Below are positions 13,616-43,104 of a DNA stretch of 64,000 nucleotides, piece after piece. The notes beneath the pieces were generated by a model. The model was not told where the DNA came from and did not search any database. It was given only the letters and a program-made list of their open reading frames with translations. Positions within the stretch are counted from its first letter, which is position 1; every line of letters begins with the position of its first letter. The DNA is from Candidatus Poseidoniales archaeon. GTDB taxonomy: Archaea; Thermoplasmatota; Poseidoniia; Poseidoniales; Poseidoniaceae. The stretch spans positions 251-64,250 of the forward strand of contig JAYQOB010000007.1 in NCBI GenBank assembly GCA_038144595.1, in the 5' to 3' direction. Both the position numbers and the translations under genes were made by a program.

Positions 13616-13671
13616 ATTGGTGATATTCGTGGGAAGGGACGTGACAAAGACAGAGAAAAGAATGAGGAGCG

Positions 13672-16100: not shown

Positions 16101-16151
16101 CCCACATTGTCGTATAGGGATACTAGGGGGACCGATGAATACGCCACAATT

Positions 16152-19965: not shown

Positions 19966-22575
19966 TTGGTTTTTATGCTCCATGGCCAACGCTGGCACAT
20001 GGATAAGGCGGACCTTGAGGAACGCCTTGCGAAAGCGGCGCCGGCGTTCAGTCGGGCGGCACCACTCATCGTCGGTGTCTTTTCCATCCTCACCTTGGTG
20101 CTCGCTGGCAACCTGTACGTTTCACCGCCCACGTTTCAGACCGATCTCAACGATTTCTCGCCCGAAACAGAGGCGTCGGAAGCTCACGACCGCATCCACG
20201 AGCATTTCCCCAACGAAATGCGACCGCTGTTCGTCCATGTGACCACGGACGACGGCTCCAACGTGCTGGGCCTCGACGCCATGAAGGCCATGCAGGACGA
20301 CCTCGCTCACTTCCAAGACGAGGCGGCCAAGCGAGAGAACATGGTCTCGGTCTGGACCACGGCACCCGGCATCCTCCAGTTGGCCGTCGACGAAGAGGGC
20401 GGTGGAGCCGCTCTGGCCACGTTTGAGGACTGGTCCGGCATCATCGACGCCCTGTTTGACGACAACGAAACCTGTGGCTTGACCGCCGACGACCAACTGC
20501 TTTCGGCTGCCACCTACGCCTCGTCCGCCCTGTTGCACAACGACCTCGACTACGAACCGGTGTGCGTCTACCTCGACGACGGCACGGGCACGGCAGCACC
20601 GACGGCGTCCTCGACGTTGTGGGTGCTGGAGATCGACCCCGACCTTGACGAAACCCCACGACGCATGCTCCAAGACCAACTTCGTGATGTGTTCTCCGAG
20701 CGTTCGTCCACCTCGACGTTGACCTACGAGGTCATCTCCAACGACCTGCTGGCCCACGACATTGACGAGGGTACCTTCGACAACCTCCTTTTGCTCGTGT
20801 TGTTGGCGTTCGCCGTGGTCGTGCTGATGCTGTCGGTGGCCTTCCGTTCCCTCTCGAGCGTGGCCTTTCCCCTGGTCGGCCTGACCAGTGCCCTTATCTG
20901 GACGTACGGCATTCTGAACATCTCCGGTGCTCGGTTCACGGCCCTCGAGGCCACCGTGGCGCCCCTCGTGTTGGGTCTCGGCATTGACTATGCCATTCAC
21001 TTGCAGCGCGCTCAGCGCTCCTTCCGAGACGAATACCCCACCGTTGCAGAGTCGTGGTTGCGTGCGTGTGGCCACCTCTCGATTCCGCGGTCCTTGGCCG
21101 TGGTCACCACGGTGGCGGCCTTCATGGCCAACGTCATTTCTCCGCTCCCTCCGCTGGCGGTGCTGGGCTACGCCTTGTCCTTGGGTGTGGTCTCGGCCTT
21201 CATCTCCTCGACCGTGTTCGTCGGTGCGCTCCACGTGGTCTTTTCCAAGAAAGCACCCGGTGAAGCCCGTCCTTCCCTCCGTTTCCCGGCGCTTTCAAAG
21301 CAGATCGTCCGGGTACAAAAGAAGCAACAAGTCGGTGTCATCCTGGTCACGGTGCTGATTTCGGGTCTCGCCGTCTACGGTGCTGCTTCCTTGGAGACGG
21401 ATTTTGACCTGGCTGACTTTGTCAGCGAGGACATGCCCATCATGGGTGTACGTGATGATTTGACCACCAGCTACGAAAGCGCTGGCTGGAAGGTGATTCA
21501 CCTCCTCATGGAGCCTGCCGAAGGGGAAGAAACCATCCCGGGGGACCTTGACCTCTTGAGCGAACTGAGGAACTTCCATTTTGACCTCAAATCCAACAAC
21601 GACGTGGTGGGCACCAACTTCCGGATTCCTTCGCCCACCTACGAAGGTCCCTATCCGTTGATCCGTGACGCCATTCTTCGCAACGCAAGTTTGGGTTCGG
21701 CTCACAATTTGGAGGTCTTCGCTGGGGAGGTCTATCCCATCGAGCGTTCAGAACCCATTGACTTGGGCGCCTTCTTCCTCTCACTGTCAGCCAACGAAAG
21801 CGTGGCCGACCCCTTGACGGGTGAGACATGGAGCGAGCGCATCGGTCAAACCGTTCACCTTGAGGGGGCGTCCATCGTCCACCTGCGTCATGAAATTCGA
21901 GTCGAAGCGTCAACCTCCGTTGAGTCCAGTCGTGTGGTTGACAATTTCATCGCCATTCTGGGTTCCACCGAGGACTCGGGGACGTTGAAATATCAACTCA
22001 AAGACCACGCTGTCCTCCATGTCACCGGTGATTTGGTCATGCTCGAGACGGTGCTGAACGGGTTGACGACCACCCAAATTGAAAGCACGGCGATTTCCCT
22101 CATCGTCTCGTTCCTCGTCCTGTTCCTGCTCACACGACGCATCATGCCGGCCATCATCGTGCTGTTCCCGGTGGGCATTGCCTCACTCTGGGTGGTGGGT
22201 TCCATGGCCCTCATCGGCCTGAAGTGGAACGTCCTGACGGTCATGGTCACGGCGCTCACCTTGGGCATTGGCATCGACTACTCCATCCACATGTGGCGAC
22301 GGTTCGAGGTTGAACTCAAGAAGCGAGGTGACCACTGGGGCGCCCTCGAAGAGGCGCTGGACACGACCGGTGTGGCCTTGATGCTGAGCGCCACCACCTC
22401 CATGGCAGGCTTCGCGGTGCTGCTGTTTTCGCCGATGCCAATCATTCAGGACTTCGGACTGATCACCGCCATCACGGTGTTGTTCTCGCTGGTCTTGGCG
22501 TTGATGGTGTTGCCCGTCCTGGTCGAACTATCGGCCCGTGGCCAAGAATCGCTGGCTGAGGATGCTACGGATTAA
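19966..22575 (+). CDS. RND-superfamily exporter (MMPL/SSD-type, COG1033-like)
   Basis: 869 aa. Two blocks of about 6 TM helices, each following a large soluble loop. Duplicated LGLGIDYAIHL / LTLGIGIDYSIHM motifs. The real start may be MDKADLEERL (aa 12). Confidence 0.8.
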   Translation: MVFMLHGQRWHMDKADLEERLAKAAPAFSRAAPLIVGVFSILTLVLAGNLYVSPPTFQTDLNDFSPETEASEAHDRIHEHFPNEMRPLFVHVTTDDGSNVLGLDAMKAMQDDLAHFQDEAAKRENMVSVWTTAPGILQLAVDEEGGGAALATFEDWSGIIDALFDDNETCGLTADDQLLSAATYASSALLHNDLDYEPVCVYLDDGTGTAAPTASSTLWVLEIDPDLDETPRRMLQDQLRDVFSERSSTSTLTYEVISNDLLAHDIDEGTFDNLLLLVLLAFAVVVLMLSVAFRSLSSVAFPLVGLTSALIWTYGILNISGARFTALEATVAPLVLGLGIDYAIHLQRAQRSFRDEYPTVAESWLRACGHLSIPRSLAVVTTVAAFMANVISPLPPLAVLGYALSLGVVSAFISSTVFVGALHVVFSKKAPGEARPSLRFPALSKQIVRVQKKQQVGVILVTVLISGLAVYGAASLETDFDLADFVSEDMPIMGVRDDLTTSYESAGWKVIHLLMEPAEGEETIPGDLDLLSELRNFHFDLKSNNDVVGTNFRIPSPTYEGPYPLIRDAILRNASLGSAHNLEVFAGEVYPIERSEPIDLGAFFLSLSANESVADPLTGETWSERIGQTVHLEGASIVHLRHEIRVEASTSVESSRVVDNFIAILGSTEDSGTLKYQLKDHAVLHVTGDLVMLETVLNGLTTTQIESTAISLIVSFLVLFLLTRRIMPAIIVLFPVGIASLWVVGSMALIGLKWNVLTVMVTALTLGIGIDYSIHMWRRFEVELKKRGDHWGALEEALDTTGVALMLSATTSMAGFAVLLFSPMPIIQDFGLITAITVLFSLVLALMVLPVLVELSARGQESLAEDATD

Positions 22576-23231
22576 ACGACATCGAGCGCCTTGACGATGT
22601 CGTCCATCACGAGCCCCTGTTCCCGTGCCACCAAAGCGTAGGCCATCCAGGGTGTGATGAGTTGGAACGCCCTGGTCTTGCGGTCCGCTCGACGGTGCAA
22701 TTCGTCGAGCTCCAAACCGCTTTGCCGAGCGATGAACCTCGCGACACGCTGGGTCAATCGAGCGCGAGGGTCGCCGGTCGAGGCTGGTCGGCTGGGCCGT
22801 GGGGCTGCCGCAGATGTGGTCGGTGCCGATGAAGTTGCTGCGGCTGCAGAAGACGCCTCACCGGTGCTACCGAGGAGGGGTGCAGTGTCGGTTTCATCTC
22901 CCTCGGTCATGGAGGAAGCCGCCACCGGGCGCAAGAGGCGGGCGGGGCGGGGAAACCATCCGAAGGGAACGTCGACCTTGCCGAGAGGAACTGCGAGGTG
23001 AAGTTCGGCGCCTCGCTCCTCGAGCCAACCGCTGGCCAACAGGGCGTTCACGACGTCTTCGGCTTCGTGCGGGGCCACCCACTCCATGTCGAACGAGAAC
23101 GTTCGCTCAACGTCGGGTCGGGGTAGCCCTTCCGCACCACGGAACACGATGGTGAGGGCTCGGCGAACATCGTCAATGTCCTCACTCATGGGATGCTGGA
23201 GGCGTGGAGCCTTCATGAAGGTAGGCATCAA
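22572..23231 (-). CDS. conserved archaeal hypothetical protein (DUF2240-like architecture)
   Basis: 219 aa. The N-terminal domain (FSFDMEWVAPHEAEDVVNALLASGWLEERGAELHLAV) and the C-terminal helical domain are separated by an Ala/Ser/Pro linker. Lies directly downstream of the Kelch giant gene. The family assignment is from memory only. Confidence 0.4.
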   Translation of the reverse strand: MMPTFMKAPRLQHPMSEDIDDVRRALTIVFRGAEGLPRPDVERTFSFDMEWVAPHEAEDVVNALLASGWLEERGAELHLAVPLGKVDVPFGWFPRPARLLRPVAASSMTEGDETDTAPLLGSTGEASSAAAATSSAPTTSAAAPRPSRPASTGDPRARLTQRVARFIARQSGLELDELHRRADRKTRAFQLITPWMAYALVAREQGLVMDDIVKALDVV

Positions 23232-26200
23232 GGTTCATCGCTGAGTTTGGTGAACGATTTATCGTCGTTGAGGCGCCAACGACCGCAGGTCGCTCCGACG
23301 TAGAAGGTCCCTTCTGCCGTGTATTCGTACTCGCCGCCTGCGGGCAGTTGTGAGTAGTCTGTCACTCGCTCCTCACCTTCCACGGCTTGAGCCGGCACGC
23401 CGAGGGCAGCCATGTGCTGGGCTGCCATCTCTTGGGGCGTTGGTGCTGGCGTCGCCGATGCTTCTTCCACGGCCTTCGGAGGACCACGTGGCGGTCCACG
23501 ACCGGGTGTTTTCACCGGGCTGGAGGCGATCTTTCCACCGGGTGGGCCTCGCTTCTTTGGCGGTTGAGCGGTTGAGGTGGGTGGTGAGGCGAGAGGGGTG
23601 TTGCCCGAATCACTCGAGACCAGTGCGGCTGCCACCTGCCCCGTCGCTTCCAGCGCTGCTGCCACGTGTTCTTCAATGCCGGCAGGAGTTCGACGGCGCA
23701 GCACCACGCTTGCACCAAGGAGGGCGAGCAAACCCACACCACCCAGCGTCATGGCGACGGCACCGAAGCCACCGGATGAACCGGTGACATTGGTGGACCA
23801 CACGTTGTTGGTCTCATCGATTTCCCACACCAAGCCTTCCTTGTCAACGGTGATTTCGAGGGTCCAGTCGCCTTCTGGTGCGGTAAACGAACGCTTGACG
23901 GATTTCGCTGTGTTGGCGTCCATGGAATAAAACACCGAACGTCCCACCATGGTGCGCTCATCGCCCTGAACAAGTTCGATGGTGGCGTTGAACGGCGTGG
24001 GCAGTTGTTCTCCACCGTTCACCACAAAGAAGGACAGGCGAATGTTCTCGCCGGCTTCTAAGTCACCGGTGAGTTCGACGTTTTCCAGTGCGAGGTCGGG
24101 CCCAATGTTGTTGAGCGGTGCCTCAAGCCACGGGTCAAGTTCTGAATTTCCGGTGGAGGACGCCAGGTCCCAGCCCGCATCATCTGCCCCTTCGGCCCAG
24201 CAATTGAGGTTGGCCTGCTGCGACAGTAGCGAAGGGTCGCCCAGGCCACTGAAATCGAACATGAAGCTGAACATGGTTTTCCCGTCAAAGACCGTGGTCG
24301 AGTTTCGAACGAGGCTGACGGGCTCCCAGGATTGTGCGAGAGAACGAATCTGGCAGGTGAGTTTGAGGTCGCTGGACCATGCTTGGCCTTCTGCGATGTA
24401 GACGCCGATTTCGACCTCCTCAAGTTTGTACCTCGAGATGCTGTCGTTGATGGCCGAAGGCACGAGTTCGGGTGCGTCAGAGTCCAGTTGGAACACGGGC
24501 ATCTCGTAGACGCTGAGGAGCTCGGTTTCAAGCGGGTCCCACAGCATCAAGGTCATGTCTTGGACCAAGCCGGATGCTTCGGGTGTGGGAATGGACGTGG
24601 AGAGCATGCCGTCCACGAGGGTCACGGTCTCGCCGCCTCGCCATGGTTCGCCCTGCAGCAAACCGTCCCAGCGAAGGCGAAGGTCACCGGAGTAGGGCGT
24701 GGCACTGGTCCGATGGGAGACGCTGGCGGTCAGGTTGATCCTGTCGCCACCCATCAAAACGGCACCTGCCACGATGGTTTGCTGAACCTCGCCGGTGGTG
24801 TCCCGGAGTTGATTGACATCAATGGCCATCTCGCGCTCCAACACCCACGCTTCGGTGAAGGATTCTCGGTGCGTTCCATCGTAGTCTCGAATGATCACGT
24901 CAAGTTCACCAGCGGCCAGGCCGCTCATCGTCAGGCTCCACTGAACGGTGGCCGTGAACGCCACGGTGAGGATGCCAGCCTCCTGCGTGACTTCGCAGCC
25001 GCTGGGCAGCAACAAAAGTCGTTCGTCCAGCGAAGCGCACGTGTCGTCCGCCGTGGTGTACTTGACACCCAATCGGTCGTCGTTGCCCACCTCAAGGCGG
25101 AGTTCGGTCAGATCACTCAGACCGTTGGCGTCGGTCACAGCGACGCGCCAGCCGACCGCTTGAGCCGGTTCAAACCGCATCATGGTGTCCGAGAGCAGGT
25201 TGGTGGTCGGTTCAAAGGCGACGAGTTCACCTTTGGTTGGTGTACGAGATTCCCAGCGCGCATGGCCTTCCTCGGCGGTCGTGGGGGGGACACTGAAGCC
25301 TGCCAGGTCGGTGCCTTCCAGCAGGACGCGCCCCCACTGGTGGTCGCCGTTGACGGTGTCGTTCACGGTGATGTTCACGGTCCACAGGTTCCCATTTTGG
25401 TGGGTGTAAAACAGCGATGGCTGGTATTCAACGCGCTGCGGCACCCCATCGGCCAACCCGCCGTTGGTGCCGTCGTCTCGAGCTTCCAGCCACGAATAGG
25501 CTGCCAATGTTTCGTTGGTGAATCCACCAACGTCGTGGAACTGGAACGAGACCGTCCTGTAGACCTGTTCGTTGGTGTAAGCGTCAAGCTCTGGGCTGAC
25601 ATCGAGGAGGGTCGGGCCCTCGCCGTTCAAGACAAATTCCAGCGGTGTGCTGTCCACCACGAGGTCCCAGTCCTCGCTGGTTCGAGCCTCAATCCAAAGA
25701 CGGAGTTCTCCGGACAAGGATTCGGGTGCATTGACCAGCGCATGTTCCACCTGGCCGGCAGGGAGGTCAAACCATGCCGAACTCTGGTTGGACCAGATGC
25801 GTTCCCCAAAGGCGTCCTCGTCAAAGGTGTGGAGGTCCATGTGAATTCGGCACTGAATCGTACCGCCGAGCAAACGAAGGCCGCTGTTGGTGAATCGGTG
25901 GTCGATGGTCAAGTTCAACGCCGTGTTCCCGGGCAAGACCTCGCCGGCTTCCACCGTGTCATCGCCTTGACTGGACACATCGGCCGTAACGTTCTGTAAC
26001 ACCACGTTCACCGAGCGGTCGATGCTCGTGACGTCGTCGTGGAGGTAGGATGCATTCCGCTCGGCGTGCGTGCTGGTCATGAACTTCAGGTAGTCGGTGG
26101 GCATGGTGCCGCCCAACGAAAAGGTCCAGTTCACCGTCTGCCCCTGATCGGTCATCGGTCCGAGCGTGGCACTCGCTTGTTGGTTGAACAGCAACGTGGA

Positions 26201-27952
26201 AGGGTCGTCAACGGTCAGTGAAGCGGTCGCCGTGTCCCACGTGAGGGTCAACCAGTCAGACCCCGAGTCGAAACTGCCGGACGCATCGGTGGGGTGAAGC
26301 GCCAGCACGTAGGTGCCGTCTTGGGTGGTGGCGTGATGCTGCGTGAGGATGTTCACGGGAGCCGAGGTTGGCTGCATGGTCGATGGAGGTGAGGTCTCAA
26401 ACGCCGCTGAATCAGCGCCGATGGAGACGTTGATCAGCGTTGGCGTCACCCACTCCATCAACCTCGTCGTGGCGTACTTCACGCGGTACTGGAGAAACGA
26501 GGCGTCTTCGGGGACATTCACCAACGATTGATTCCCCGGCTCGAGATAGGTGCTGACCGGGACGGTGGTCGGAAGCCACGCCGCCGATGCCATGTCCTGC
26601 ATGGTGTCGGCCGTGCGGTACTGCAAGCCAAGATCGGTGCCGGTGGGTTCGATGGCGGAAAACCGGAGCCAAAGGAGACTGGCGGCGCCTTCGGCAGACG
26701 GTCGAAGGTCGTAGATGGACGAGGTCAGAAGCCCGTCGTGGGACGTGGGGTTCACGTGGTATTCATTTTCAGCGAGGTACTGGATGCTCCACGTGCTGAA
26801 CCGCGAATTGCTCGTATCGCCCGAGGCGTAGACAAGCGTGTCGTTGGCGAGGGCGAGCGTGGAGTCGTAGAGACCAATGGGCAACGTGGCGTAGGTATTC
26901 CACGTGTTCGTGAACGGGTCGTAGCCGTAGGTTTTGTCGTTGGAAGAACCGCTCCATCCGGATGTTTCGTATCCGCCATGGATGATGATCTCGTCGTTGA
27001 AGACGGCGGCGGCGTAGGCGGAGAACTTGTGCGTGGCGTTGGGAAGCTGCGTCCATGAATCGGTGATAGGGTCGTAGGCTTCGGTCAGGTTGGTCTCCTG
27101 CTCAACGGTCGTGTTGGCCACCGGGTCAAAGAAGACGGCTACGCCGCCGTAGGCGATGAGTTTGCCACGGAAGGCGACGAGTTCAAAGGAGTGGCGCTGG
27201 TTGTTCATGTTCGCCATTTGGGTCCATGAATCGTTGACGGGGTCGTAGCGAAGCAGACGGTCCGTGGAGTCCGAACGGTCCTTGGCCGAGACACCACCGG
27301 CCACGTAAACAAGGCCGTTGAGGCTGGCCACACCAGCGAGTCCAACCGACTGATTCCCGGGCATGCTGGTGCCGTAGCTCCAGTTGCCATCGGTGGCGTC
27401 GTAGACCTGAACCAATCCGGTGGCTTCGACGGAGGGCGAGGAATAAGGGTGGTGGTCACCGATGGCGTAGATGGTGTCGCCGACGACGGTGCACTTGTGA
27501 TACTGCTGGGTTTCTTGAAGTTGCTCAACGGCGGGCGTCCAGGTTTTGTTCACCACATCAAAAATTTCCACGGTTTTGGTGTTCGCCTCATCGCCCGTTT
27601 GGGAGGGGTCGACGTCAATGCGACCACCAATGAGGAACACTTCTTCGGTGGCCGGCAAATACGCCGAGCAAGCGCCCGTTCGCATTTGTGTGAGCCCGAT
27701 GCCGGAGGTGGTCGTCCACGAAACGGGTGGGCGCTTGAGTTCGGTCAGGCCCGATGCAGCCGATTGCGTGAGGTTGGTGTGGCTGAACCCGTTGGAGGTG
27801 GCAAAGTTGTCCACCAATTCCTCGGTGTGCTGCACTGTTGTTGGGTTCTCTTCGGCGAGAGAGCGCTCATCAGGCACGAGGAGCGGCGACCACGATACTG
27901 CGACCATAACGAGGGTGACCAACACCGTCGTCCAACGCTGGTGATTGACCAT
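23228..27952 (-). CDS. giant surface protein: signal anchor, Kelch beta-propeller, many beta-sandwich domains, CARDB-like domain, TM anchor, Pro/basic cytoplasmic tail
   Basis: 1574-aa uninterrupted ORF. N-terminal hydrophobic segment WTTVLVTLVMVAVSW. Kelch-like blades (VFLIGGRID...VEIFDVVNKTWTP; VYVAGGVSAKD...LLRYDPVNDSWTQMANMNNQRHSFELVAFRGKLIAYGG; AYDPITDSWTQLP). CARDB-like GPDLALENVELTGDLEAGENIRLSFFVVNGG...IDETNNVW. TM helix AVAMTLGGVGLLALLGASVVL followed by RRR. The tail ends GEYEYTAEGTFYVGATCGRWRL. Confidence 0.8.
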   Translation of the reverse strand: MVNHQRWTTVLVTLVMVAVSWSPLLVPDERSLAEENPTTVQHTEELVDNFATSNGFSHTNLTQSAASGLTELKRPPVSWTTTSGIGLTQMRTGACSAYLPATEEVFLIGGRIDVDPSQTGDEANTKTVEIFDVVNKTWTPAVEQLQETQQYHKCTVVGDTIYAIGDHHPYSSPSVEATGLVQVYDATDGNWSYGTSMPGNQSVGLAGVASLNGLVYVAGGVSAKDRSDSTDRLLRYDPVNDSWTQMANMNNQRHSFELVAFRGKLIAYGGVAVFFDPVANTTVEQETNLTEAYDPITDSWTQLPNATHKFSAYAAAVFNDEIIIHGGYETSGWSGSSNDKTYGYDPFTNTWNTYATLPIGLYDSTLALANDTLVYASGDTSNSRFSTWSIQYLAENEYHVNPTSHDGLLTSSIYDLRPSAEGAASLLWLRFSAIEPTGTDLGLQYRTADTMQDMASAAWLPTTVPVSTYLEPGNQSLVNVPEDASFLQYRVKYATTRLMEWVTPTLINVSIGADSAAFETSPPSTMQPTSAPVNILTQHHATTQDGTYVLALHPTDASGSFDSGSDWLTLTWDTATASLTVDDPSTLLFNQQASATLGPMTDQGQTVNWTFSLGGTMPTDYLKFMTSTHAERNASYLHDDVTSIDRSVNVVLQNVTADVSSQGDDTVEAGEVLPGNTALNLTIDHRFTNSGLRLLGGTIQCRIHMDLHTFDEDAFGERIWSNQSSAWFDLPAGQVEHALVNAPESLSGELRLWIEARTSEDWDLVVDSTPLEFVLNGEGPTLLDVSPELDAYTNEQVYRTVSFQFHDVGGFTNETLAAYSWLEARDDGTNGGLADGVPQRVEYQPSLFYTHQNGNLWTVNITVNDTVNGDHQWGRVLLEGTDLAGFSVPPTTAEEGHARWESRTPTKGELVAFEPTTNLLSDTMMRFEPAQAVGWRVAVTDANGLSDLTELRLEVGNDDRLGVKYTTADDTCASLDERLLLLPSGCEVTQEAGILTVAFTATVQWSLTMSGLAAGELDVIIRDYDGTHRESFTEAWVLEREMAIDVNQLRDTTGEVQQTIVAGAVLMGGDRINLTASVSHRTSATPYSGDLRLRWDGLLQGEPWRGGETVTLVDGMLSTSIPTPEASGLVQDMTLMLWDPLETELLSVYEMPVFQLDSDAPELVPSAINDSISRYKLEEVEIGVYIAEGQAWSSDLKLTCQIRSLAQSWEPVSLVRNSTTVFDGKTMFSFMFDFSGLGDPSLLSQQANLNCWAEGADDAGWDLASSTGNSELDPWLEAPLNNIGPDLALENVELTGDLEAGENIRLSFFVVNGGEQLPTPFNATIELVQGDERTMVGRSVFYSMDANTAKSVKRSFTAPEGDWTLEITVDKEGLVWEIDETNNVWSTNVTGSSGGFGAVAMTLGGVGLLALLGASVVLRRRTPAGIEEHVAAALEATGQVAAALVSSDSGNTPLASPPTSTAQPPKKRGPPGGKIASSPVKTPGRGPPRGPPKAVEEASATPAPTPQEMAAQHMAALGVPAQAVEGEERVTDYSQLPAGGEYEYTAEGTFYVGATCGRWRLNDDKSFTKLSDEP

Positions 27953-28064: not shown

Positions 28065-29306
28065 TTGGGGTCCATGCACCACCCTGCTCATGACATTCAA
28101 GTAACCCAAGAGCCCAACCTCCTGTTCGGGTTTCCCGTGCTGTTCTTCGGCACCTTGGCCGTCGCAGGGCTCGTGGCGTACGCGCTTCACCGCCGATGGG
28201 GTGAATTGCCAAAAGTGGGTCAGCCTCGCTACGACACCATCGTCCTCCTGCTGGGCCTGTGGTGTTTGGGTGGCTTGTTGACCGATGCCTTTGCCCACAT
28301 TTCGGGCGTGGTGGATGACACCTTTTTCACGCCGTGGCACGCCATTTGGTATTCGGGCGCCACCGCCTACGGTCTCTACATCACCTACGCCATCCTTCCC
28401 GAGGGCGGCGTGCGGGAACTCGTGCGACACCCGTTCAAGGTCCTGGGCGATGTTGAACCTCAACACAAGCCTGGAGTGTACGGCATCGTCATTTTCGGCA
28501 TTTCAGGGGTGGGTGACATGATTTGGCACGAAACCTTGGGCGTCGAAAGCAACACGGATATTCTCCTCTCACCCACCCACATCGGGTTGTTCATCGGCCT
28601 GATCATGTCGGTGACCGCACCGATTTGGTCGGCGTGGCCCGACGGGAAAAGTGGCACCTCTGGGTTGACCTCTCAATTGCTTCTCGTGTTTGGAGCAGGA
28701 GCGGCGTGGAGCGTGGTTCAACTGATTTTCCGCTACACCAACCTTTGGTTCAGGGATCTGTCGGAATTTTGCTACAGCGGTTCCACTGATTTTTGCCAGT
28801 ACGAACACTACAACCAAGGCCTCGAAGTTGGATTGCAGAGTTTCTGGCTTCAGGCCCTGCTTCTCTCCGGAGTCCTCATCCTGTTTCTGAGGCGCTGGAA
28901 ACCCGCTCGAGGCTCGATGTTCATCCTCTTCACGATTCAAGCGGTCAGCATGTGGGTCTATTCCGAATTCAGCTCAACCGTGTTCCAGATGAGCCTTCTC
29001 CTCGCTCTCGCCGCCGAACTCTTCCTCCCGGTGTTCAACCGTTGGGGCATGAAGGCGTACATCCCGTTGATGGCCGCTGCACAGGTGATCATTTTCATGG
29101 GCATGTGGTGGGTTGAGGCCCAACGAATCTCAAACGTCTCCTATTGGTTTGAAGGCAGTGAACTCCACGTCTTGCCCTTCGGGTGGACCATTCATGCGAC
29201 CTTTGGTACCGTGGTGCTCGCTGCTGCCATCGCCTGGTTTGCTGTCGTCGTCGCCGAAGGGCCATCCGTGCCCGATGTTGATCTGGCAGAGGTTGATGAA
29301 CGCTGA
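28065..29306 (+). CDS. polytopic membrane protein with conserved-looking intramembrane histidines, unknown family
   Basis: 413 aa, about 10 hydrophobic segments. His-containing motifs DAFAHISGV, FFTPWHAIWYSG, GDMIWHETLG, LLSPTHIGLF. Ends 80 nt upstream of the H-NOX gene on the same strand. Confidence 0.6.
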   Translation: MGSMHHPAHDIQVTQEPNLLFGFPVLFFGTLAVAGLVAYALHRRWGELPKVGQPRYDTIVLLLGLWCLGGLLTDAFAHISGVVDDTFFTPWHAIWYSGATAYGLYITYAILPEGGVRELVRHPFKVLGDVEPQHKPGVYGIVIFGISGVGDMIWHETLGVESNTDILLSPTHIGLFIGLIMSVTAPIWSAWPDGKSGTSGLTSQLLLVFGAGAAWSVVQLIFRYTNLWFRDLSEFCYSGSTDFCQYEHYNQGLEVGLQSFWLQALLLSGVLILFLRRWKPARGSMFILFTIQAVSMWVYSEFSSTVFQMSLLLALAAELFLPVFNRWGMKAYIPLMAAAQVIIFMGMWWVEAQRISNVSYWFEGSELHVLPFGWTIHATFGTVVLAAAIAWFAVVVAEGPSVPDVDLAEVDER

Positions 29307-29355
29307 GTCTTTGGGGCCGAGTTCAATCATCCCTGCTTGACAGCAAACCGGATGG

Positions 29356-29362
29356 ATAATAA
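29356..29362 (+). promoter_or_regulatory. possible TATA box for a leaderless H-NOX transcript
   Basis: ATAATAA, centred about 27 nt upstream of the ATG at 29386, in otherwise GC-rich spacer. Confidence 0.25.
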
Positions 29363-29385
29363 CCTCCCGTGCGGGCCCAACACCC

Positions 29386-29928
29386 ATGAAAGGCATCGTT
29401 TTTCGGGAATTTATCGACATGGTTGAGGCGAGTTTTGGGGATGAGATGGTGGACACCATCATCGAAGCCTGCGACCTCGAAAGCGGGGGCGCTTACACGG
29501 CCGTCGGTACCTACGACCACACTGAATTGGTGCAGATGGTGGTCGCCCTCTCCGGGGAGACAGGAGCCCCCGTTCCTGCCCTGGTTGAAGCGTTCGGAAC
29601 CTACCTTTTTGGTCGATTTCTCGAACTCTTCCCTGTGTTTTTCAATCACGACACGTCTTTTGAGTTTCTCAACTCCATCCACGATGTCGTTCACGTCGAG
29701 GTGCTGAAACTCTATCCCGACGCCGGGCTTCCTTCGTTTGTCACCGAGTTGTCGGAGGACAAGAAAACCCTCCACTTCGAATACCACTCCTCCCGCCATT
29801 TTGCCGATTTGGCGGTGGGGCTGATGAAAGGGGCCTTCGCCCATTGGAACGAAGATGTTGAGGTCGACATTGAGGACCGCTCATCGGACGAGAAGCAGGT
29901 GGTCATGTTCACTTTCACGCTGAATTGA
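29386..29928 (+). CDS. stand-alone H-NOX (heme nitric oxide/oxygen-binding, HNOB) domain protein
   Basis: 180 aa. The N-terminus MKGIVFREFIDMVEASFGDEMVD resembles MKGTIVGTWIKTLRDLYG of bacterial H-NOX. FLNSIHDVVHVEV places a His where the proximal heme ligand sits (DEVH in the Thermoanaerobacter H-NOX as I recall it). LPSF has a Pro at the heme-distortion position. EYHSSRHFADLAVGLMKG contains the Y-x-S-x-R heme-propionate motif. Confidence 0.85.
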   Translation: MKGIVFREFIDMVEASFGDEMVDTIIEACDLESGGAYTAVGTYDHTELVQMVVALSGETGAPVPALVEAFGTYLFGRFLELFPVFFNHDTSFEFLNSIHDVVHVEVLKLYPDAGLPSFVTELSEDKKTLHFEYHSSRHFADLAVGLMKGAFAHWNEDVEVDIEDRSSDEKQVVMFTFTLN

Positions 29929-29938
29929 GCGTGAAAGT

Positions 29939-30577
29939 GTGGACATCTTCGAACTCGCCAAGCAGGCCAAGGCCGCCAAGGCAGACGGCAACGCCGCAGC
30001 CTCAGATGATCCTTCCAAGGTCATTGCGCGGCTTGAACGTAAACTGGCACGCGAAAAAAGTGCTCGGTTGACGGCCGAGAAAACCATTGAGGAAAGCTCC
30101 CGGAACCTCTACCTCTCCAACCGAACCCTCGACGCCACCAACGAACAATTGGAAACCACCGTGCTTGAGTTGAACGAAACCATGGCTCGCCTCACGTCCG
30201 CTGAGGTCAAGCGGTTGGCCACCACCATCACACTCATCCTTGCAGCGATTCTGTTCTTTGTTTCAGAATTCGCCATTGAACCGGTGCTCGAGCGGAGCAT
30301 CGACAACAGGCTTCGACTCGCCCTTGCAAAAGTGAGTATCTTCTCGGTCTTGATTCCAATTGAGATTTTGGTTTCCCGCTACATTGAATCCAACCTTTCC
30401 GAGGCCGAGCACCTCAACGAGGACATGTACCGAAACCTCTTGGAAGCTGCCTACGATGACGGCATCATCACGGACATGGAGCGAACCTTGCTTGACAGCA
30501 GCTCCAAACAGCTCGGGCTCACGCCAGATGAGGCAAAACGACTCGAAGATGAAGTGGCTGCCGCTTACGCCGCCTGA
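29939..30577 (+). CDS. coiled-coil / 2-TM membrane protein with a TerB-like C-terminal motif; putative H-NOX partner
   Basis: 212 aa. GTG start 10 nt after the H-NOX stop. Heptad-rich N-terminus (ARLERKLAREKSARLTAEKTIEESSRNL...LETTVLELNETMARLTSAE). Two TM helices (LATTITLILAAILFFVSEF, VSIFSVLIPIEILV). C-terminal AAYDDGIITDMERTLLDSSSKQLGLTPDEAKRLEDEV. No kinase, GGDEF/EAL, HD-GYP or MCP motifs. Confidence 0.6.
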   Translation: MDIFELAKQAKAAKADGNAAASDDPSKVIARLERKLAREKSARLTAEKTIEESSRNLYLSNRTLDATNEQLETTVLELNETMARLTSAEVKRLATTITLILAAILFFVSEFAIEPVLERSIDNRLRLALAKVSIFSVLIPIEILVSRYIESNLSEAEHLNEDMYRNLLEAAYDDGIITDMERTLLDSSSKQLGLTPDEAKRLEDEVAAAYAA

Positions 30578-30628
30578 ACGCAGGGCGTTGAGCAAGTTCT
30601 TTTGTACTCGGTGAAGTGATTTTTCTAC

Positions 30629-31468
30629 ATGGCGGCTGACGATGGCATCGTTGCTCAACACGACGGGGCGTTGACCTCACCTCAACTGCTCGCTGTTGGT
30701 CTGCTCGCCGTCTTCCTTGTCGGGCTTGGTGCCGGCGCCGCCTTGTTCGCTCCAGGAGCAGGTCTTTTCGCCTCGGAAGGCGAAGACTTCACCGCCAGCG
30801 TTGACGCACCGACGGGGACGAATCAATACATCATGGTTGAAGTTGACGAAGGCGACAACGACGAGGAAGTCCTCATCGAACACATCCACCACGTGTTTTT
30901 CTTCACGGCCACCGACCGAGGCGGGCTGATCACTTGGGATTTCGGTGATGGTTCAACCGCCACCGGGGCGCTCACGAACCACAGTTTCGCCGAGCCCGGC
31001 TATTACACCGTGAGCGTCACCGAACTTCTTGAAGGTGCGATTCAGGAGGTCCAACTTATCGTCGAGGTAGACTTGGTTTCCCAAGCCGAGGTCGACAACA
31101 TGGAATGCGTCTGTGCCCCCACTGCGAAAGACACCGTCATCGTGCTCTCCGAGCATGAGGGGCTATCGTCCATTGGTGGTTTCGTGAAGGTGGAACATGA
31201 CGGCAGCAGCGAGTCGTGTTCACTGCGCAACCCACTCCAAGAGTGCCACGTCCGTGTCATGCTGCAGCGCTTGAGCGGAGGCGATGTGGTGGAAGAATCC
31301 GTGCTGTTTGACGACACCTTCCGAAGCAACGAGAAGGTGGTTGACTTTGTCTTTGATACCGTGGACCTGAAACCCGGTGAGCGCCTCCAACTCCGACTTG
31401 AAACCGACCAGTTGAGAGACTGGCACAAACCCACGGCGGAGTGGTCCACCGATGCACCGGTTGTTTGA
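30629..31468 (+). CDS. membrane-anchored PKD-domain protein
   Basis: 279 aa. TM anchor LLAVGLLAVFLVGLGAGAALF. PKD signature ITWDFGDGSTATGALTNHSFAEPGYYTVSV. Confidence 0.65.
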   Translation: MAADDGIVAQHDGALTSPQLLAVGLLAVFLVGLGAGAALFAPGAGLFASEGEDFTASVDAPTGTNQYIMVEVDEGDNDEEVLIEHIHHVFFFTATDRGGLITWDFGDGSTATGALTNHSFAEPGYYTVSVTELLEGAIQEVQLIVEVDLVSQAEVDNMECVCAPTAKDTVIVLSEHEGLSSIGGFVKVEHDGSSESCSLRNPLQECHVRVMLQRLSGGDVVEESVLFDDTFRSNEKVVDFVFDTVDLKPGERLQLRLETDQLRDWHKPTAEWSTDAPVV

Positions 31469-31548
31469 TGCCCCTCCCTCAAACGACCCGACGCTGGTCT
31501 CCAATTGAAAGGAGGCACCGTTATCATCCCGCAAAGGCTAGCCTCGCC

Positions 31549-33546
31549 ATGAACCGAACCGCTGCGGTGCTTCTTGCCCTCCTCATGGCGCTCATGCCGT
31601 TAGCCGGATGCATCAGCGACGGCGTTGATGGAAACGACGGCGCTGCCGGCGAAACAGGGGCGCAGGGCCTCCCGGGCCAAGACGGCGCCGACGGTCTCGA
31701 TGGCGTGGACGGGTTGAACGGAACCGATGGTGCGAACGGCGCCGACGGTGCTGATGGCGCAGACGGTAGCAACGGAACGGACGGTGTGGACGGCAAGACC
31801 ACCCTCATTCAGACCTTCATCGAGTACCCCGGCGAGTTTTGCGTCGATGGTGGCGTCGGACTCCATGTTGGCATCGATGACGACAGCGACGCCTACCTTT
31901 CCATCGACGAGATCGACGAAACCGTGTACGTGTGCAACGGTGCAGACGGCCAAGACGGCGCCGACGGAAGTTCGGGCAGTGGCGGCTCCAGCGGTGGCAC
32001 AGCGGGCATGATGCTCAGCGATTCCATCCGCCTCAGCAAATCCGACGGCTGTCCTGCAGGCGGTCGTCTCATGGCCTTCGGTTTGGACAACGGTGACAAC
32101 GGCGGAACGGCCGGGAACGGCGTGTTGGAATCCGGTGAAATTGACGACCAGACCACCTACTGCAGCGACCAGCGGGTCAGCTTCGTGGACGATGCACGAC
32201 CGGGGACGACGGGGAGCAAACCCGTGGCCTATCAGGGCATGCGCATCAGCATCGAGGACACCTTGTACTTCGCAGCGGACGACGGCGTCCACGGCTACGA
32301 ACTCTGGGCCTACAACACCACGACCGACGAAATGTGGATGGTGGCCGACATCCGTCAGGGGGCTCAGGGCAGTTTCCCCGGCTATTTGCTTGCCGTTCAG
32401 CACGGTACGCAATTGTTCTTTGGGGCTTACACCGACGACAACGGGACTGAATTATGGGCGCACGATCACACCACGGGCACCACCTGGATGGCCGCTAACC
32501 TTGGTCCGGACCAGCCCTCGCCAAGTGGAAGCAATCCCGGCGACGACATCGAAATCATGTACGGTGACATTCTGTACTTCTCCGCCTTTACCCCTCAATA
32601 CGCCACCGAACTTTGGGCCTACAACACCCTCACCCAAAACTCGTGGCTCGTCCAAGACATCCACATGGGCAGTTCGGCCAACCCCGGCTGGTACATGCAT
32701 TTCATCCACAAGGATGTGCTCTACTTCACCGCTCGAGACGTCGGTAACGTCCACGACCTTTGGGCTCACAACCAATCCAACGGCACCACCTGGAAGGTCG
32801 CAGCCTTTGGCACAGACCCCAACACGCACCCGGGGAATTACATGGACCATCTCATTGGCGACACGTTGTATTTTGACGCACTCACGCCGCTTGGGCGGGA
32901 ACTTATGGCGTACAACCTGCTCAACCATACCTCATGGTTGGTCGCTGATTTGGAACTGGGTCAAGTCGGCAGCAACCCCGGCGAACACATGTCGCTCGTG
33001 GTGGGCAACACCTTGCTCTTTGATACGGCCGACGACAGCCTGTGGGCCCATGACACGTCCAACGGCACCACGTGGCGCGTGATGCAGCACACCGGAACCA
33101 ACGCTGGTGAAGGCGCGCACGAGACCGTTGTCGGCACCATGGCGTTCTTCCAGGCGCAGGACAATGCTGGTGGAGCCGAACTTTGGGCGTACGACGCTGA
33201 AACCGGTCAGGCCTTCAGGGCCGTCGACATCGTTCCGGGCGCGGACGGCAGCAACCCCGGCCAGAACATGATGGTGGGTCTGAGCGGCGTGCTCTACTTT
33301 GACGCCTCCACGCACAGCACGGGGCGCGAGTTGTGGGCTCACGATCCGGCGGACGGCTCAACATGGGTGGTCGCTGACATCGCTTACGACGATACCAACT
33401 ACACGACACCCGACCCGTCCTCCAACCCTGCTCGCAGTTTCTGGGCCTTCCACAACGGCTGCTTGTTCTTTGACGCTTACGAGAGCGAGACGGGCCGAGA
33501 GATGTGGAAGATGTGCCTTGAACACACCATCACCTACGGTGTTTGA
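31549..33546 (+). CDS. lipoprotein with a collagen-like G-X-Y tract and ELWxxDG-type beta-propeller repeats
   Basis: Internal ATG of ORF 31441-33546. Signal plus lipobox-like MNRTAAVLLALLMALMPLAGC. About 19 uninterrupted G-X-Y triplets (GNDGAAGETGAQGLPGQDGADGLDGVDGLNGTDGANGADGADGADGSNGTDGVDGK). At least 8 repeats of the form G(T/R)ELWA(H/Y)(D/N)xxxGxxW...D(I/L)xxGxxGSxPG. Confidence 0.7.
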   Translation: MNRTAAVLLALLMALMPLAGCISDGVDGNDGAAGETGAQGLPGQDGADGLDGVDGLNGTDGANGADGADGADGSNGTDGVDGKTTLIQTFIEYPGEFCVDGGVGLHVGIDDDSDAYLSIDEIDETVYVCNGADGQDGADGSSGSGGSSGGTAGMMLSDSIRLSKSDGCPAGGRLMAFGLDNGDNGGTAGNGVLESGEIDDQTTYCSDQRVSFVDDARPGTTGSKPVAYQGMRISIEDTLYFAADDGVHGYELWAYNTTTDEMWMVADIRQGAQGSFPGYLLAVQHGTQLFFGAYTDDNGTELWAHDHTTGTTWMAANLGPDQPSPSGSNPGDDIEIMYGDILYFSAFTPQYATELWAYNTLTQNSWLVQDIHMGSSANPGWYMHFIHKDVLYFTARDVGNVHDLWAHNQSNGTTWKVAAFGTDPNTHPGNYMDHLIGDTLYFDALTPLGRELMAYNLLNHTSWLVADLELGQVGSNPGEHMSLVVGNTLLFDTADDSLWAHDTSNGTTWRVMQHTGTNAGEGAHETVVGTMAFFQAQDNAGGAELWAYDAETGQAFRAVDIVPGADGSNPGQNMMVGLSGVLYFDASTHSTGRELWAHDPADGSTWVVADIAYDDTNYTTPDPSSNPARSFWAFHNGCLFFDAYESETGREMWKMCLEHTITYGV

Positions 33547-33753: not shown

Positions 33754-34503
33754 ATGAACAAGTGGTTAATCGTTTTAATCTGCTCAATCGCAGGGTTCTT
33801 TCTGTTCGGCGGGATTGGTGCGTTCGCAGTTGTTTCCAAGAGTACACAGGGAGAGGTCTTCCGTTACGGGTGATGCCTCAGAGAGCATCACATTCGAAGG
33901 AGAGTGGGACAAATTCTACGATATTTACGCAGAGGACCAAGATATCGCGATTTTTTTTGAGACTTCACAAACTCACGACCCTGACTACACCTATCTTCTT
34001 CGTTGTGGGGTCGACACAGGGAGCACCATTGGAATAAGTGGGGATTGCGGAGACAGGCGGAGAGACTTGTATCTTGTTGGTGATTTTACCGTCGAGGCGT
34101 CAGGCGCGGGTGATGTCACATTTACGTTTGATGGAACGGGTGAGGTAATGATTGTGCAATCTGGTATTGCTAGTTCTTTCGGCTCGCTTGCTTTGATGTG
34201 TCTGGGTTGCTGCCTCTGCCCCGTGTTGATGATCCTCTCTGGAGTCAAATTGGGGAAAGGAAAACACAAAATGTTGTTGTCATCGGTGGTGATTCGTTTG
34301 GTTATCAACAAACATTACCTCAGCAAGCATTGCCTCAGCAAGCAGTCCAGTCGTACAGTTTCAGCACTGAAACAGTTGAGCAAAGCTATCCGCAATCCAC
34401 ACCAATACAGCAGAAGGATTTCTCTGCGTGGGATGCACCTACTACCTCTACCAACAACCCGTCTGCATACCAGCAAGCCACCCGAACAAACGGAGGCTAC
34501 TGA
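33754..34503 (+). pseudogene. membrane protein with a Gln-rich C-terminus, at least 2 frameshifts (low-GC islet)
   Basis: MNKWLIVLICSIAGFFLFGGIGAFAVV stops after 39 codons. The sequence continues in ORF 33815-34552 (second TM helix SLALMCLGCCLCPVLMIL), then ORF 34198-34503 (YQQTLPQQALPQQAVQSY...). Confidence 0.35.
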
Positions 34504-34782
34504 CTACAGAGCGCAAGGCTCAACCGGTGAGTGGATCAAGTTCATTGGCTAATGTCCAGTTTGGTTCATGTCAACATAGGCTCGCCAGTGCTGGAAAAGC
34601 CGTGATGGACCCGATTCGGCGGTGCGGAGTGCTCGTACCGGGAAACTATCTGCAAATACTATGGTAATTCAATGGAAATGGAAATGGAAATAGCTTCTCC
34701 TGCAAGCGATTAGTCACACAAAACAATCCATCATTGACTGCGTGGGAAGAAGATTAAAGCAACATGTGAACTTTCACAGCGC

Positions 34783-35525
34783 GTGGACGAAGAGGGACAG
34801 GTAGGTTCTGCATTTTGGGGCGTTGCCGAAGAAGACAAACCCGAACGACATAGCTTATCGAAAGAAGACCGGTATAAATCACAATCAAGGGAACTTTCCT
34901 ATGCGGATATTGAAAAGTTGGAGTATCAGGAAAATCAAAGGCAAGAGAAATTAAACAATGAATGGAAAGACAAAGTTCCCGATGATATGGTTATGATGCG
35001 GGACGAAATACGAAATGCAAGGTATGTGGTCCCCGGATGCACTGCCCTGTATCTCTTGATGACCATTTCAGACGGTGGATGCATCACCACTTCAATCCAA
35101 GAACAAATCTGGCCACTCGTCATCGTTTGCCGCTTCAATTCCTCGTTTCACGCCAACTTCGAGAGGTGCGCTGGTACGCTGAGGAGATGACGGCTGTGGT
35201 CTACCGCAAAGGCCTTTCTGGGCACCACTTCGTCGTTTCTGCAACCATTCTTGAACGAGGTGATGAACTGATACTCAATTCAGAAACGATATGGACAAAA
35301 GAGGGATATGACGATGACGGCCATCCTGTCAACAAAAAGGAGACCCATTACTGGATCGAGGCTCATCGTGGTGGACAGAGATTCGGCACCTTCGCTGACG
35401 ATTGGAATAACAAACGTCACCTTTTACGGACCATTGATTTCGCAGCAAAAAATCTCGCAGTGAATGCCACTTACGAATTCGTAAATTACAAGTCGTGTTT
35501 TTCAGGTGCTGGTACCGGGATTTGA
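34783..35525 (+). CDS. hypothetical protein(s); two overlapping frames (34783-35190, 35037-35525), possibly one frameshifted gene
   Basis: ORFs of 135 and 162 aa with no recognisable motifs. AT-rich. The 3' end overlaps the 3' end of tRNA-Glu on the opposite strand. Confidence 0.3.
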
Positions 35526-35579
35526 ACCCGGGTCGAAGGAATGAGAGTCCTTCATGATGGGCCACTACACTATACGAGC
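35507..35579 (-). tRNA. tRNA-Glu (anticodon CUC)
   Basis: Hand-folded from the reverse complement GCTCGTATAGTGTAGTGGCCCATCATGAAGGACTCTCATTCCTTCGACCCGGGTTCAAATCCCGGTACCAGCA. T-arm CCGGG/TTCAAAT/CCCGG. Anticodon loop CTCTCAT. Short D-stem typical of tRNA-Glu. Acceptor stem is 6 of 7 paired, with a C4-C69 mismatch. Confidence 0.8.
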
Positions 35580-35606
35580 GTGGTAGGCTGACGGACCGGC
35601 CTTTCC

Positions 35607-35612
35607 TATTTA
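35607..35612 (-). promoter_or_regulatory. possible TATA box of tRNA-Glu
   Basis: TAAATA on the minus strand, 28-33 nt upstream of the mature 5' end. This is the expected archaeal spacing. Confidence 0.3.
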
Positions 35613-35765
35613 GCCATCACGCCACGCCTCGGTGTGGGGCGATTCCGTTAGGTTTCGTTTCACTTTAAGTGAAAAAGAAAAGTGAAAAACGAGGCATGGC
35701 GTTGGATTGCTTCGTTTTCTTCAACTTGCACCCTCCTTCGTCGCTTCATATACCACCGCCAATGA

Positions 35766-36023
35766 ATGCGGTCCATGGAAGAACAAAACCTCTCCCAAAA
35801 CCTTCGCTTTGCAGACATGACGGCCACGTCATCCCGGTCCAACGTTCCCGCCTGGGCCAAGAACAGCCAGACCACCCTTGCCTACGGAACGGGCCGCCTT
35901 CCCACGCACGCTCGTCAAATCGGCTGGCAGCCCGTGGCCGGTGTGGGGGCAGCCCCTGTGCCATCCCACCTCTCCTCCAGCATGCAATCGCTGCGCCGCC
36001 GCATCGTTCGAGGTGAGGCCTGA
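35766..36023 (+). CDS. hypothetical protein
   Basis: 85-aa ORF whose stop overlaps the next start (TGATG). Composition is plausible but there are no motifs. A competing 199-aa minus-strand ORF looks like a GC-rich antisense artefact. Confidence 0.3.
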   Translation: MRSMEEQNLSQNLRFADMTATSSRSNVPAWAKNSQTTLAYGTGRLPTHARQIGWQPVAGVGAAPVPSHLSSSMQSLRRRIVRGEA

Positions 36024-43050: not shown

Positions 43051-43104
43051 ATCTCGCCGTTGCGTATGCTAACCTTCATGCCCTACCGTTGTCGCCTTCG
43101 GGTC

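Follow-up and report, generated by a model that had tools for sequence, protein, structure and literature searches.

How does a heme-based gas sensor signal in an archaeon when no kinase or cyclase is encoded beside it? The question is raised by a gene pair in a 64,000-nucleotide (nt) stretch of DNA from a Candidatus Poseidoniales archaeon (contig JAYQOB010000007.1 of assembly GCA_038144595.1, positions 251 to 64,250), to which we refer as the window. A stand-alone gene of the H-NOX (HNOB) family of heme sensors (29386..29928, + strand, ATG start, 180 amino acids) is followed there by a gene on the same strand for a membrane protein (29939..30577, GTG start, 212 amino acids), which we call the partner. 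An earlier note, made from the letters alone, had placed the two open reading frames (ORFs) at these positions, the second starting 10 nt after the stop codon of the first, and had seen no kinase, cyclase or methyl-accepting chemotaxis protein (MCP) signature within 28065-33546; both statements hold, the latter by a family scan of the ORFs. Likewise, no GGDEF and/or EAL enzyme was found next to the H-NOX gene in this region of the window, and Pfam and NCBIfam searches revealed no response regulator, HD-GYP or EAL gene near the pair. From the analysis described below we consider it fairly probable that the two genes form a self-contained nitric oxide (NO)-sensing module of the Poseidoniales (Marine Group II), which derives from a bacterial hnoX-hnoK-type operon and signals to a membrane hairpin.

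The product of the first gene matched Pfam HNOB (PF07700) with E=1.7e-40 and 139 bits (cut-off 25.5) over profile positions 1-162 of 163, as well as the solved structures 6ocv (E=5.5e-37), 6bde, 2kii/4u99 and 1u4h, and 1524 homologues were found. For residue-level comparison we used the H-NOX known as Tt H-NOX, whose reference sequence was checked to be identical to 1u4h. The N-terminal MKG of the window protein aligned with that of Tt H-NOX, and His103, the predicted proximal heme ligand (second His of SIHDVVH; codon at 29692..29694, + strand), fell in an invariant column with Tt H102 and with the corresponding His of the Shewanella H-NOX structures 6ocv and 2kii. Pro116 matched Tt P115, again in an invariant column, and the heme-propionate-binding YxSxR motif (Y133-H-S135-S-R137, 29782..29796, + strand) matched Tt Y131, S133 and R135 in columns that are invariant across Tt H-NOX and its bacterial relatives. 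The H-NOX assignment of the earlier note, which had been built on these motifs, is thus borne out. The distal triad W9/N74/Y140 of Tt H-NOX is replaced by F9, L74 and L142 in the window protein and in all its close relatives, Leu142 (codon at 29809..29811, + strand) occupying the position of the O2-stabilizing Tyr140, and the corresponding hydrogen-bond network is absent. Because the distal pocket is predicted to be fully non-polar, that is, of the NO-selective type, the protein should exclude O2 and bind NO.

Members of the 90% identity cluster of this protein carry the NCBI name 'heme NO-binding domain-containing protein [Poseidonia sp.]'. The archaeal H-NOX proteins of our survey were 63-97% identical to it, the 97% match coming from a Poseidonia sp. 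metagenome-assembled genome (MAG), and the nearest bacterial ones (from Methyloversatilis and gammaproteobacterial MAGs) were 50-58% identical. Judged by these comparisons, it is unambiguously a bona fide H-NOX, a new but already auto-annotated member of a known family. Our literature searches found no description of H-NOX in Poseidoniales or Marine Group II, nor of a bona fide archaeal H-NOX. The earlier note had suggested an undescribed gas-sensing output pathway; the H-NOX/hairpin system is indeed undescribed, and the H-NOX itself had already been named automatically by NCBI.

The survey of H-NOX/partner loci included one genome per species and yielded 23 archaeal loci from 22 MAGs, labeled Poseidonia sp., Poseidoniales, Poseidoniaceae, Thermoplasmatota or 'Methanobacteriota'. 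The partner gene was located directly downstream of the H-NOX gene and in the same orientation in 23/23 of them, with intergenic gaps of mostly 1-26 nt. When all ORFs from 25 archaeal loci were clustered, H-NOX was present in 25/25 and the partner in 24/25, the remaining contig ending inside the gene, and no other gene family was common to at least 24 of the 25 loci. The association was also recovered in the reverse direction, as look-ups from distant partner homologues (~55% identity) found HNOB immediately upstream in 3/3 cases, each with different flanks (DNA polymerase B, molybdopterin oxidoreductase and glutamate dehydrogenase, respectively). In several assemblies the NCBI accessions of the two proteins are consecutive, the partner being labeled 'hypothetical protein', and the archaeal contigs bearing the pair include some of 1.53 Mb and another of 2.07 Mb in which it lies beside DNA polymerase B. 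Altogether, the neighbor that the earlier note had seen in one genome is conserved beside H-NOX homologues, and H-NOX and partner form an obligate two-gene cassette.

A conserved third gene was also considered and rejected, since only the pair is universal in the clustering and the Kelch, Pirin and HTH_10 genes found around it are each limited to a subclade. A Pirin (bicupin) gene lies 3' of the partner on the same strand in 8/25 archaeal loci (at 7229-8308, + strand, in L004, and in 7 other Poseidonia loci) and is absent in the window. In Poseidoniaceae, a divergently transcribed regulator gene of the HTH_10 (bacterio-opsin-activator) type lies immediately upstream of the pair (- strand, at 3752-4549 in L020 and 3288-3932 in L036-L038), a position at which the window has no such gene. 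On one Poseidoniales contig (L045, 4645-8624, - strand) the pair abuts molybdopterin oxidoreductase, 4Fe-4S and NrfD genes, a set possibly connected with nitrogen- or sulfur-oxide metabolism. One MAG (JAYPOA01) has the pair on two contigs, L012 (6573-6965) and L014, and one of its partner copies has only 130 amino acids. This double occurrence could reflect strain heterogeneity, duplication or a frameshift, and the short copy (L012) is the only truncated partner among the 25 loci.

The partner itself matched no Pfam or NCBIfam family, nor any domain above threshold. An exhaustive profile search returned 757 matches at E <= 1e-3, and the protein was split into modules by sub-profile classification of these matches, giving an N-terminal motif, a docking helix, a coiled-coil stalk, a hairpin of two transmembrane (TM) helices (2-TM hairpin) and one TerB-like repeat. 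Its homologues number 184, and 56 positions are invariant among 21 sequences down to 53% identity. AlphaFold2 (AF2) modeled residues 25-120 as one continuous helix, followed by a second helix (124-153) and three short C-terminal helices (pLDDT 75.5, pTM 0.34), and hydropathy gave two TM peaks at 94-112 and 127-145. The coiled coil, the two TM helices and the short TerB-like unit of the earlier note are therefore all present, the last as a weak match. The N-terminal 'MDIFELAK' motif (29939..29962, + strand; L6, A7 and K8 invariant) is kept by the homologues, which supports the GTG start. In Poseidoniaceae-type partners, motifs of this kind ('DI(F/A)xLAK', 'SLxDLFGKA') are repeated 3-4 times in long low-complexity N-terminal extensions (P0247, P0248, P0254; L020 4981-6240), and the repeated element looks like a short linear motif.

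At the other end, the TerB-like repeat spans residues 155-208 ('MYRNLLEAAYDDGIITDMERTLLDSSSKQLGLTPDEAKRLE', 30401..30562, + strand) as delimited by its sub-profile. The 'AYDDGIITDMER' unit matched DUF533 below threshold (E=0.013, 15.5 bits vs. a cut-off of 29.6) over ~50 residues, the length of one repeat, and in proteins classed by Pfam as TerB the sub-profile detects 2-8 copies in tandem. The 'DGIITDMER...LG(I/L)' unit of the partner thus resembles one repeat of the TerB fold as found in TerB, DUF533 and DjlA-type TerB-like proteins, but it is a single sub-threshold repeat, whereas a full domain needs two copies, which might come together, for example, across a dimer, and no ter genes are located nearby. 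The repeat is specific to the archaeal hairpin proteins and is missing from the related bacterial ones. A 212-residue homologue of the partner, P0127, bears the Joint Genome Institute (JGI) name 'response regulator RpfG family c-di-GMP phosphodiesterase'. We rejected this label, as P0127 has no precomputed Pfam domain and the window partner gave no match to REC or HD-GYP families; P0127 probably received the name via the shared N-terminal helix described next.

To which proteins is this N-terminal helix related? In the bacterial operons nearest to the window pair by H-NOX similarity, the gene directly downstream of H-NOX encodes a hybrid histidine kinase (HK) with HisKA, HATPase_c and REC domains, and HD-GYP and GGDEF genes are sometimes nearby. 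These kinases start with 'RLERRLxRERxARxxAExLLExKSRxLYxxN', to which 'RLERKLAREKSARLTAEKTIEESSRNLYLSN' is the archaeal equivalent, and BLASTP aligned the partner with a Methyloversatilis HnoK-type kinase at 42% identity over 77 amino acids (E=0.007). We built a sub-profile from residues 24-92 of the archaeal partners only and compared its scores with those of 900 composition-matched shuffles. The sub-profile matched the extreme N-terminus (first ~50-70 residues) of 9/9 proteins encoded downstream of bacterial H-NOX genes, with 25-44 bits for 7 kinases and 11-16 bits for 2 GGDEF-EAL enzymes (L029 and L030), the best of the shuffles reaching 8.7 bits. In a library-wide profile search, soluble HKs beginning with this segment were matched at E=2e-10 to 5e-7. 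By these sequence matches, the N-terminal helix of the partner and the N-terminus of canonical H-NOX partners are homologous. Since it accompanies H-NOX whatever the output domain, it is likely an H-NOX docking element, and we refer to residues 24-62 ('KVIARLERKLAREKSARLTAEKTIEESSRNLYLSN', 30008..30124, + strand) as the docking or 'receiver' helix. The best-matching kinase N-terminus (L032, 43.6 bits) neighbors the closest bacterial H-NOX (P0051, 58% identity), which fits co-transfer of both genes. The cassette likely originated by transfer of a proteobacterial hnoX-hnoK operon and later replacement of the kinase core. The earlier note had called the partner non-canonical; this is right for the part in which stalk, hairpin and TerB-like repeat stand in place of the kinase and not for the N-terminal helix, which is shared with HnoK-type kinases and GGDEF-EAL enzymes.

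The resemblance to the HnoX-HnoK systems (those of Shewanella oneidensis and Vibrio cholerae and related hnoX-hybrid-HK operons) accordingly extends to the H-NOX, which stands alone, belongs to the same subfamily with 50-58% identity to kinase-linked bacterial homologues and has a non-polar pocket, to a partner gene immediately downstream in the same orientation, and to a partner beginning with a 'RLERRxxRERxARxxAExxxExxSRxLYxxN' helix. It ends where the window partner lacks HisKA, HATPase_c and REC domains and its surroundings lack response regulators and HD-GYP/EAL genes, so that instead of feeding a phosphorelay to c-di-GMP enzymes, as on the HnoK side, the helix leads into a membrane hairpin. 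Systems of H-NOX with GGDEF/EAL enzymes (Shewanella woodyi SwDGC, Legionella Lpg1057, Dinoroseobacter Dgc1) resemble the proposed module in that the neighbor is regulated directly by protein-protein contact, with no phosphorelay, and in that the shared helix also stands at the start of the GGDEF-EAL neighbors in L029 and L030, but the window system has no cyclase or phosphodiesterase domain and its output is not a second messenger.

What replaces the enzyme is a stalk and hairpin, the conservation of which was counted in a cross-domain alignment of 63 archaeal and bacterial sequences. The coiled-coil stalk (residues 63-95, 30125..30223, + strand) has Asn at heptad 'a' positions (N68, and position 75, which is Asn in most of the family). 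It runs into TM1 (residues 96-120, 30224..30298, + strand), with near-invariant L105, F106, S109, E110, E114, P115 and E118, and TM2 (residues 127-150, 30317..30388, + strand) carries K131, I134, L138, P140 and E142; both segments were delimited by hydropathy and conservation. P140 was conserved in 63/63 sequences, L105 in 62/63, and K131 and F106 in 61/63 each; E110 was Glu in 60 and Asp in 3, and E114, E118 and E142 were Glu or Asp in 58-60 of the 63 (E142: 46 Glu and 14 Asp). The top-conserved positions of the family thus lie in the membrane. The family signature reads 'N..L...N..L..T...LT.A...R.A...TL..A..LF..SE...EP..E', 12 residues, 'K..I..LL.P.E'; the window partner carries it and reaches 104 bits with the TM sub-profile. 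Neither Pfam nor NCBIfam has a model for this coil-2TM core, whether in the archaeal partner or in the bacterial proteins. Conservation from the coil into TM1 has a period of 3.5 residues (power 4.4, compared with <=0.5 at periods 2-3, 5 and 7), and Asn residues occupy consecutive 'a' positions of the stalk, E110 falling on an 'a' position as well. This periodicity and the placement of Asn and E110 suggest that the coiled coil is parallel and keeps its register on entering the membrane.

The bacterial relatives suggest what the hairpin may do. In 23 longer bacterial members it is C-terminal to REC (8), PAS (7), TPR (8) or SiaC (2) domains, and the small coil-2TM proteins (~170 amino acids) are hypothetical proteins of Cytophagales. 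The gene for the small protein lies directly downstream of SiaC in 4/4 Cytophagales genomes (L039, L040, L042 and L043, at ~5001-5530 in each), and in 3/4 of these loci a Transglut_core2 gene comes after it. The order in L042 is HAMP-SpoIIE phosphatase, DUF6272, SiaC and the coil-2TM gene, and Pseudomonas has the SiaD cyclase at the last position; the locus has the appearance of a SiaABC partner switch in which SiaD has given way to a membrane hairpin. The coiled-coil stalk of Pseudomonas SiaD bears two 'ARISDxxQ' motifs to which SiaC binds, S82 and Q86 contacting T68 of SiaC (PMC8457831). The Cytophagales stalk contains a near-invariant 'VSDRLQNKL', the 'VSDRLQ' of which aligns with the SiaC-binding 'ISDRYQ' of SiaD (7e6g), a motif-level hint at E=0.48. 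It appears, then, that the same swap has occurred twice, a partner-specific docking helix being kept and a kinase or cyclase output being replaced by the hairpin, and it is mainly for this reason that we read the hairpin as an output and not as an anchor. The archaeal pair shares with SiaC-SiaD of Pseudomonas aeruginosa (7e6g) a small soluble switch protein that would bind a motif on a dimeric coiled-coil stalk leading to the output, and its bacterial hairpin relatives occupy the place of SiaD downstream of SiaC and carry a SiaD-like 'SDRxQ' stalk motif. It differs in that the archaeal switch protein is H-NOX and not SiaC, the output is a 2-TM hairpin and not GGDEF, and the window has no Sia genes.

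These observations can be assembled into a mechanism. H-NOX would bind heme through His103 and the YxSxR motif and, with its non-polar pocket, is predicted to exclude O2 and take NO. It would dock on the cytoplasmic N-terminal helix (~24-62) of the partner, the segment related to the N-terminus of the kinases and c-di-GMP enzymes that are under H-NOX control in bacteria. The partner is probably a parallel coiled-coil dimer, and NO binding may change the packing or register of the stalk; as the stalk runs unbroken into TM1, a change in H-NOX could be passed along the helix to the 2-TM hairpin. The hairpin, whose most conserved residues (E110, K131, P140 and E142) are intramembrane, would be the output, and the lone TerB-like repeats of the two subunits may pair with each other on the cytoplasmic face. 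The gating of a membrane effector by H-NOX, which the earlier note had put forward, is thus what we infer as well. The Tt H-NOX-MCP fusion (Tar4 of Caldanaerobacter/Thermoanaerobacter) also couples H-NOX via long helices to a membrane-associated signaling protein, but it is fused, binds O2 via W9/N74/Y140 and signals through its MCP domain to CheA, whereas the window H-NOX is a separate protein that lacks the triad and has no MCP. Such a module would respond to a gas with neither histidine kinases nor c-di-GMP, both of them scarce in the Poseidoniales lineage. Indeed, 11 Thermoplasmata genomes have 3 HKs and 4 response regulators (PMC5847659), and it is reasonable for an output to be autonomous where two-component systems are nearly lacking.

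Our leading guess is that the hairpin acts as a gated cation or proton path, or else that it controls a membrane partner. The ion-path idea comes from the conserved membrane carboxylates and from an architecture (stalk helix, TM1, acidic loop, TM2) that, in what we take to be a likeness of layout only, recalls the 2-TM cation channels of the CorA/MCU type. A relationship with CorA or MCU was considered on this basis, and no support for homology was found. HK and c-di-GMP networks are probably also scarce in Bacteroidota. We tentatively raise the wider idea, which we rate as doubtful, that the coil-2TM hairpin is a new class of signaling output, a gated ion-conducting or membrane-potential-modulating domain switched by H-NOX in Poseidoniales, by SiaC in Cytophagales or by fused REC/PAS domains, and that it replaced HK and c-di-GMP outputs where those are scarce. 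If the ion-path output is real, this would be the first archaeal H-NOX pathway and a rare prokaryotic case of a gas signal converted directly into ion flux.

Several points weigh against the account given so far. No similarity of the hairpin to a channel or to any solved membrane protein could be detected: the best hit of the elongated partner model in a Foldseek search of the Protein Data Bank (PDB) had E=1.5, and all hits were soluble helical proteins; the profile of the bacterial hairpin family gave only coiled-coil noise and the sub-threshold SiaD match among PDB sequences; and no channel families were among the Pfam/NCBIfam matches. In addition, a four-helix bundle formed by a dimer offers little room for a pore, and the global confidence of the AF2 partner model is low (pTM 0.34). 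The two GGDEF-EAL matches to the docking-helix profile are weak, and the SiaD motif match is not significant alone. No structure of an H-NOX-partner complex exists that would show where H-NOX docks on bacterial partners (PMC8738867), so that the name 'docking helix' rests on the exclusive co-occurrence of this helix with H-NOX neighbors. Finally, the prediction of NO selectivity relies on just three pocket residues.

The alternative that survives best is that the partner is a passive tether or scaffold, which only anchors H-NOX while the output is a third protein or a metal at the TerB-like repeat, for example a membrane-held transcription factor released on NO. The missing channel similarity in the Foldseek and PDB profile searches is in line with this idea, as are the restriction of the TerB-like repeat to the archaeal versions, the divergent HTH_10 regulator upstream of the pair in Poseidoniaceae loci and the Pirin gene after the partner in 8/25 loci. 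However, no third gene is conserved with the pair, and neither of these two subclade-limited genes adjoins it in the window. Moreover, the top-conserved residues are charged residues or Pro inside the TM hairpin and are common to bacterial proteins without the TerB repeat, and a hairpin that served only as an anchor would leave the bacterial REC-PAS-coil-2TM proteins with no output at all. We consider a passive tether unlikely, and signaling to the hairpin remains our preferred reading.

A second alternative keeps the module and changes its input, H-NOX reporting heme oxidation (redox), CO or O2 instead of NO. In the oxic surface water inhabited by the hosts, ferrous heme can become oxidized, CO also fits a non-polar pocket, and an in vitro response to oxidation is known for some bacterial H-NOX proteins (PMC12329717, PMC7108781). 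The oxidative response described for Vibrio and Caulobacter H-NOX works via a Cys-ligated zinc site, whose conserved Cys/His ligands cluster within the C-terminal subdomain, and a site of this type is absent from the window protein, the sole Cys of which, C29, is not conserved among relatives. In addition, the missing distal Tyr/Asn/Trp network argues against stable O2 binding, and the closest characterized relatives are NO sensors. A signal other than NO is therefore quite improbable in our estimation. It is very improbable, in turn, that the partner is a functionless, decaying leftover of a transferred HK gene and that H-NOX signals via an unlinked protein. The partner does keep only the N-terminal segment of a kinase-type neighbor and has no catalytic domain, but it has 184 homologues and, among 21 sequences, the 56 invariant positions counted above, the pair is strictly linked across Poseidoniales while its flanks have been reshuffled, and bacteria have a family, conserved in its own right, to which the non-kinase part belongs.

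That the H-NOX segment is bacterial DNA or a chimeric assembly in an archaeal bin, as the overwhelmingly bacterial occurrence of H-NOX and the compositionally odd stretches of the window (such as 1-18 kb, GC 0.39-0.50) might suggest, is effectively refuted by the GC content around the pair (0.56-0.58, near the ~0.60 of most of the remaining window), by archaeal genes on both sides, by the recurrence of the pair in 22 independent archaeal MAGs, including the 1.53 and 2.07 Mb contigs beside archaeal DNA polymerase B, and by the identity of at most 58% between archaeal H-NOX and the closest H-NOX of a bacterial kinase operon. The flanking archaeal or eukaryote-type genes are DUF2240 ('conserved in archaea'; 22572-23231, - strand) on one side and, on the other, a GPN-loop ATPase (38190-39008, - strand), an EMC3/DUF106 insertase homologue (43006-44031) and a Cbf5/dyskerin-type TruB pseudouridine synthase with DKCLD, TruB_N and PUA domains (44570-45538). 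The contamination that the earlier note had named as a possible refutation is thus dismissed, and the host of the H-NOX segment is confirmed as archaeal (Poseidonia, Marine Group II).

Around the pair, the sequence contains elements that would fit a bicistronic unit. A TATA-like 'gataataa' (29355..29362, + strand), centered ~27 nt upstream of the H-NOX ATG, suggests, at the level of consensus, an archaeal promoter and a leaderless or near-leaderless transcript. A Shine-Dalgarno-like 'GTGA' (29931..29934, + strand) lies within the 10-nt gap, 5-8 nt upstream of the partner GTG, and two T-tracts (30597-30603 and 30620-30624, + strand) between the partner stop codon and the next gene could serve as an archaeal terminator, in which case the pair would be bicistronic. 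All three elements were read from the letters. The ORF of 413 amino acids upstream of H-NOX had no family match, and downstream of the pair are ORFs for a PKD protein and a collagen/DUF7151 protein. Further upstream is a giant protein of 1574 amino acids (23228-27952, - strand) with Kelch repeats, a CARDB domain and a C-terminal TM segment; its synteny with the pair is limited to 5 related loci. No further copies of the modules were found elsewhere in the window.

The GC content is 0.39-0.50 at window positions 1-18000, 34000-36000 and 60000-62000, compared with ~0.60 elsewhere. The left 18 kb have many short ORFs and few family matches, among them a GT2 (2921-3607), an SLOG/LDcluster4 protein (6353-6943), a MacB/FtsX and ABC pair (11401-13615) and a DUF7343/MarR-like protein (15010-15591, - strand), and the dip at 34-36 kb adjoins a tRNA-Glu (35505-35579). 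Genomic islands, foreign DNA or a join in the assembly could account for these stretches.

What, then, would such a module mean for its hosts? Poseidoniales are among the most abundant planktonic archaea of the surface ocean; they are uncultured, and their sensory biology is essentially unknown. Sources of NO in seawater are nitrite photolysis, phytoplankton and nitrifiers, and a strictly conserved NO-sensor cassette suggests that Poseidoniales monitor nitric oxide. The pair would constitute the first H-NOX pathway outside bacteria and animals and the first with a non-enzymatic membrane output. Beyond this lineage, the short N-terminal helix common to kinase, GGDEF-EAL and hairpin partners points to the likely H-NOX docking site, and the coil-2TM hairpin represents an unannotated output module that is widely distributed behind REC, PAS, TPR, SiaC and H-NOX inputs.

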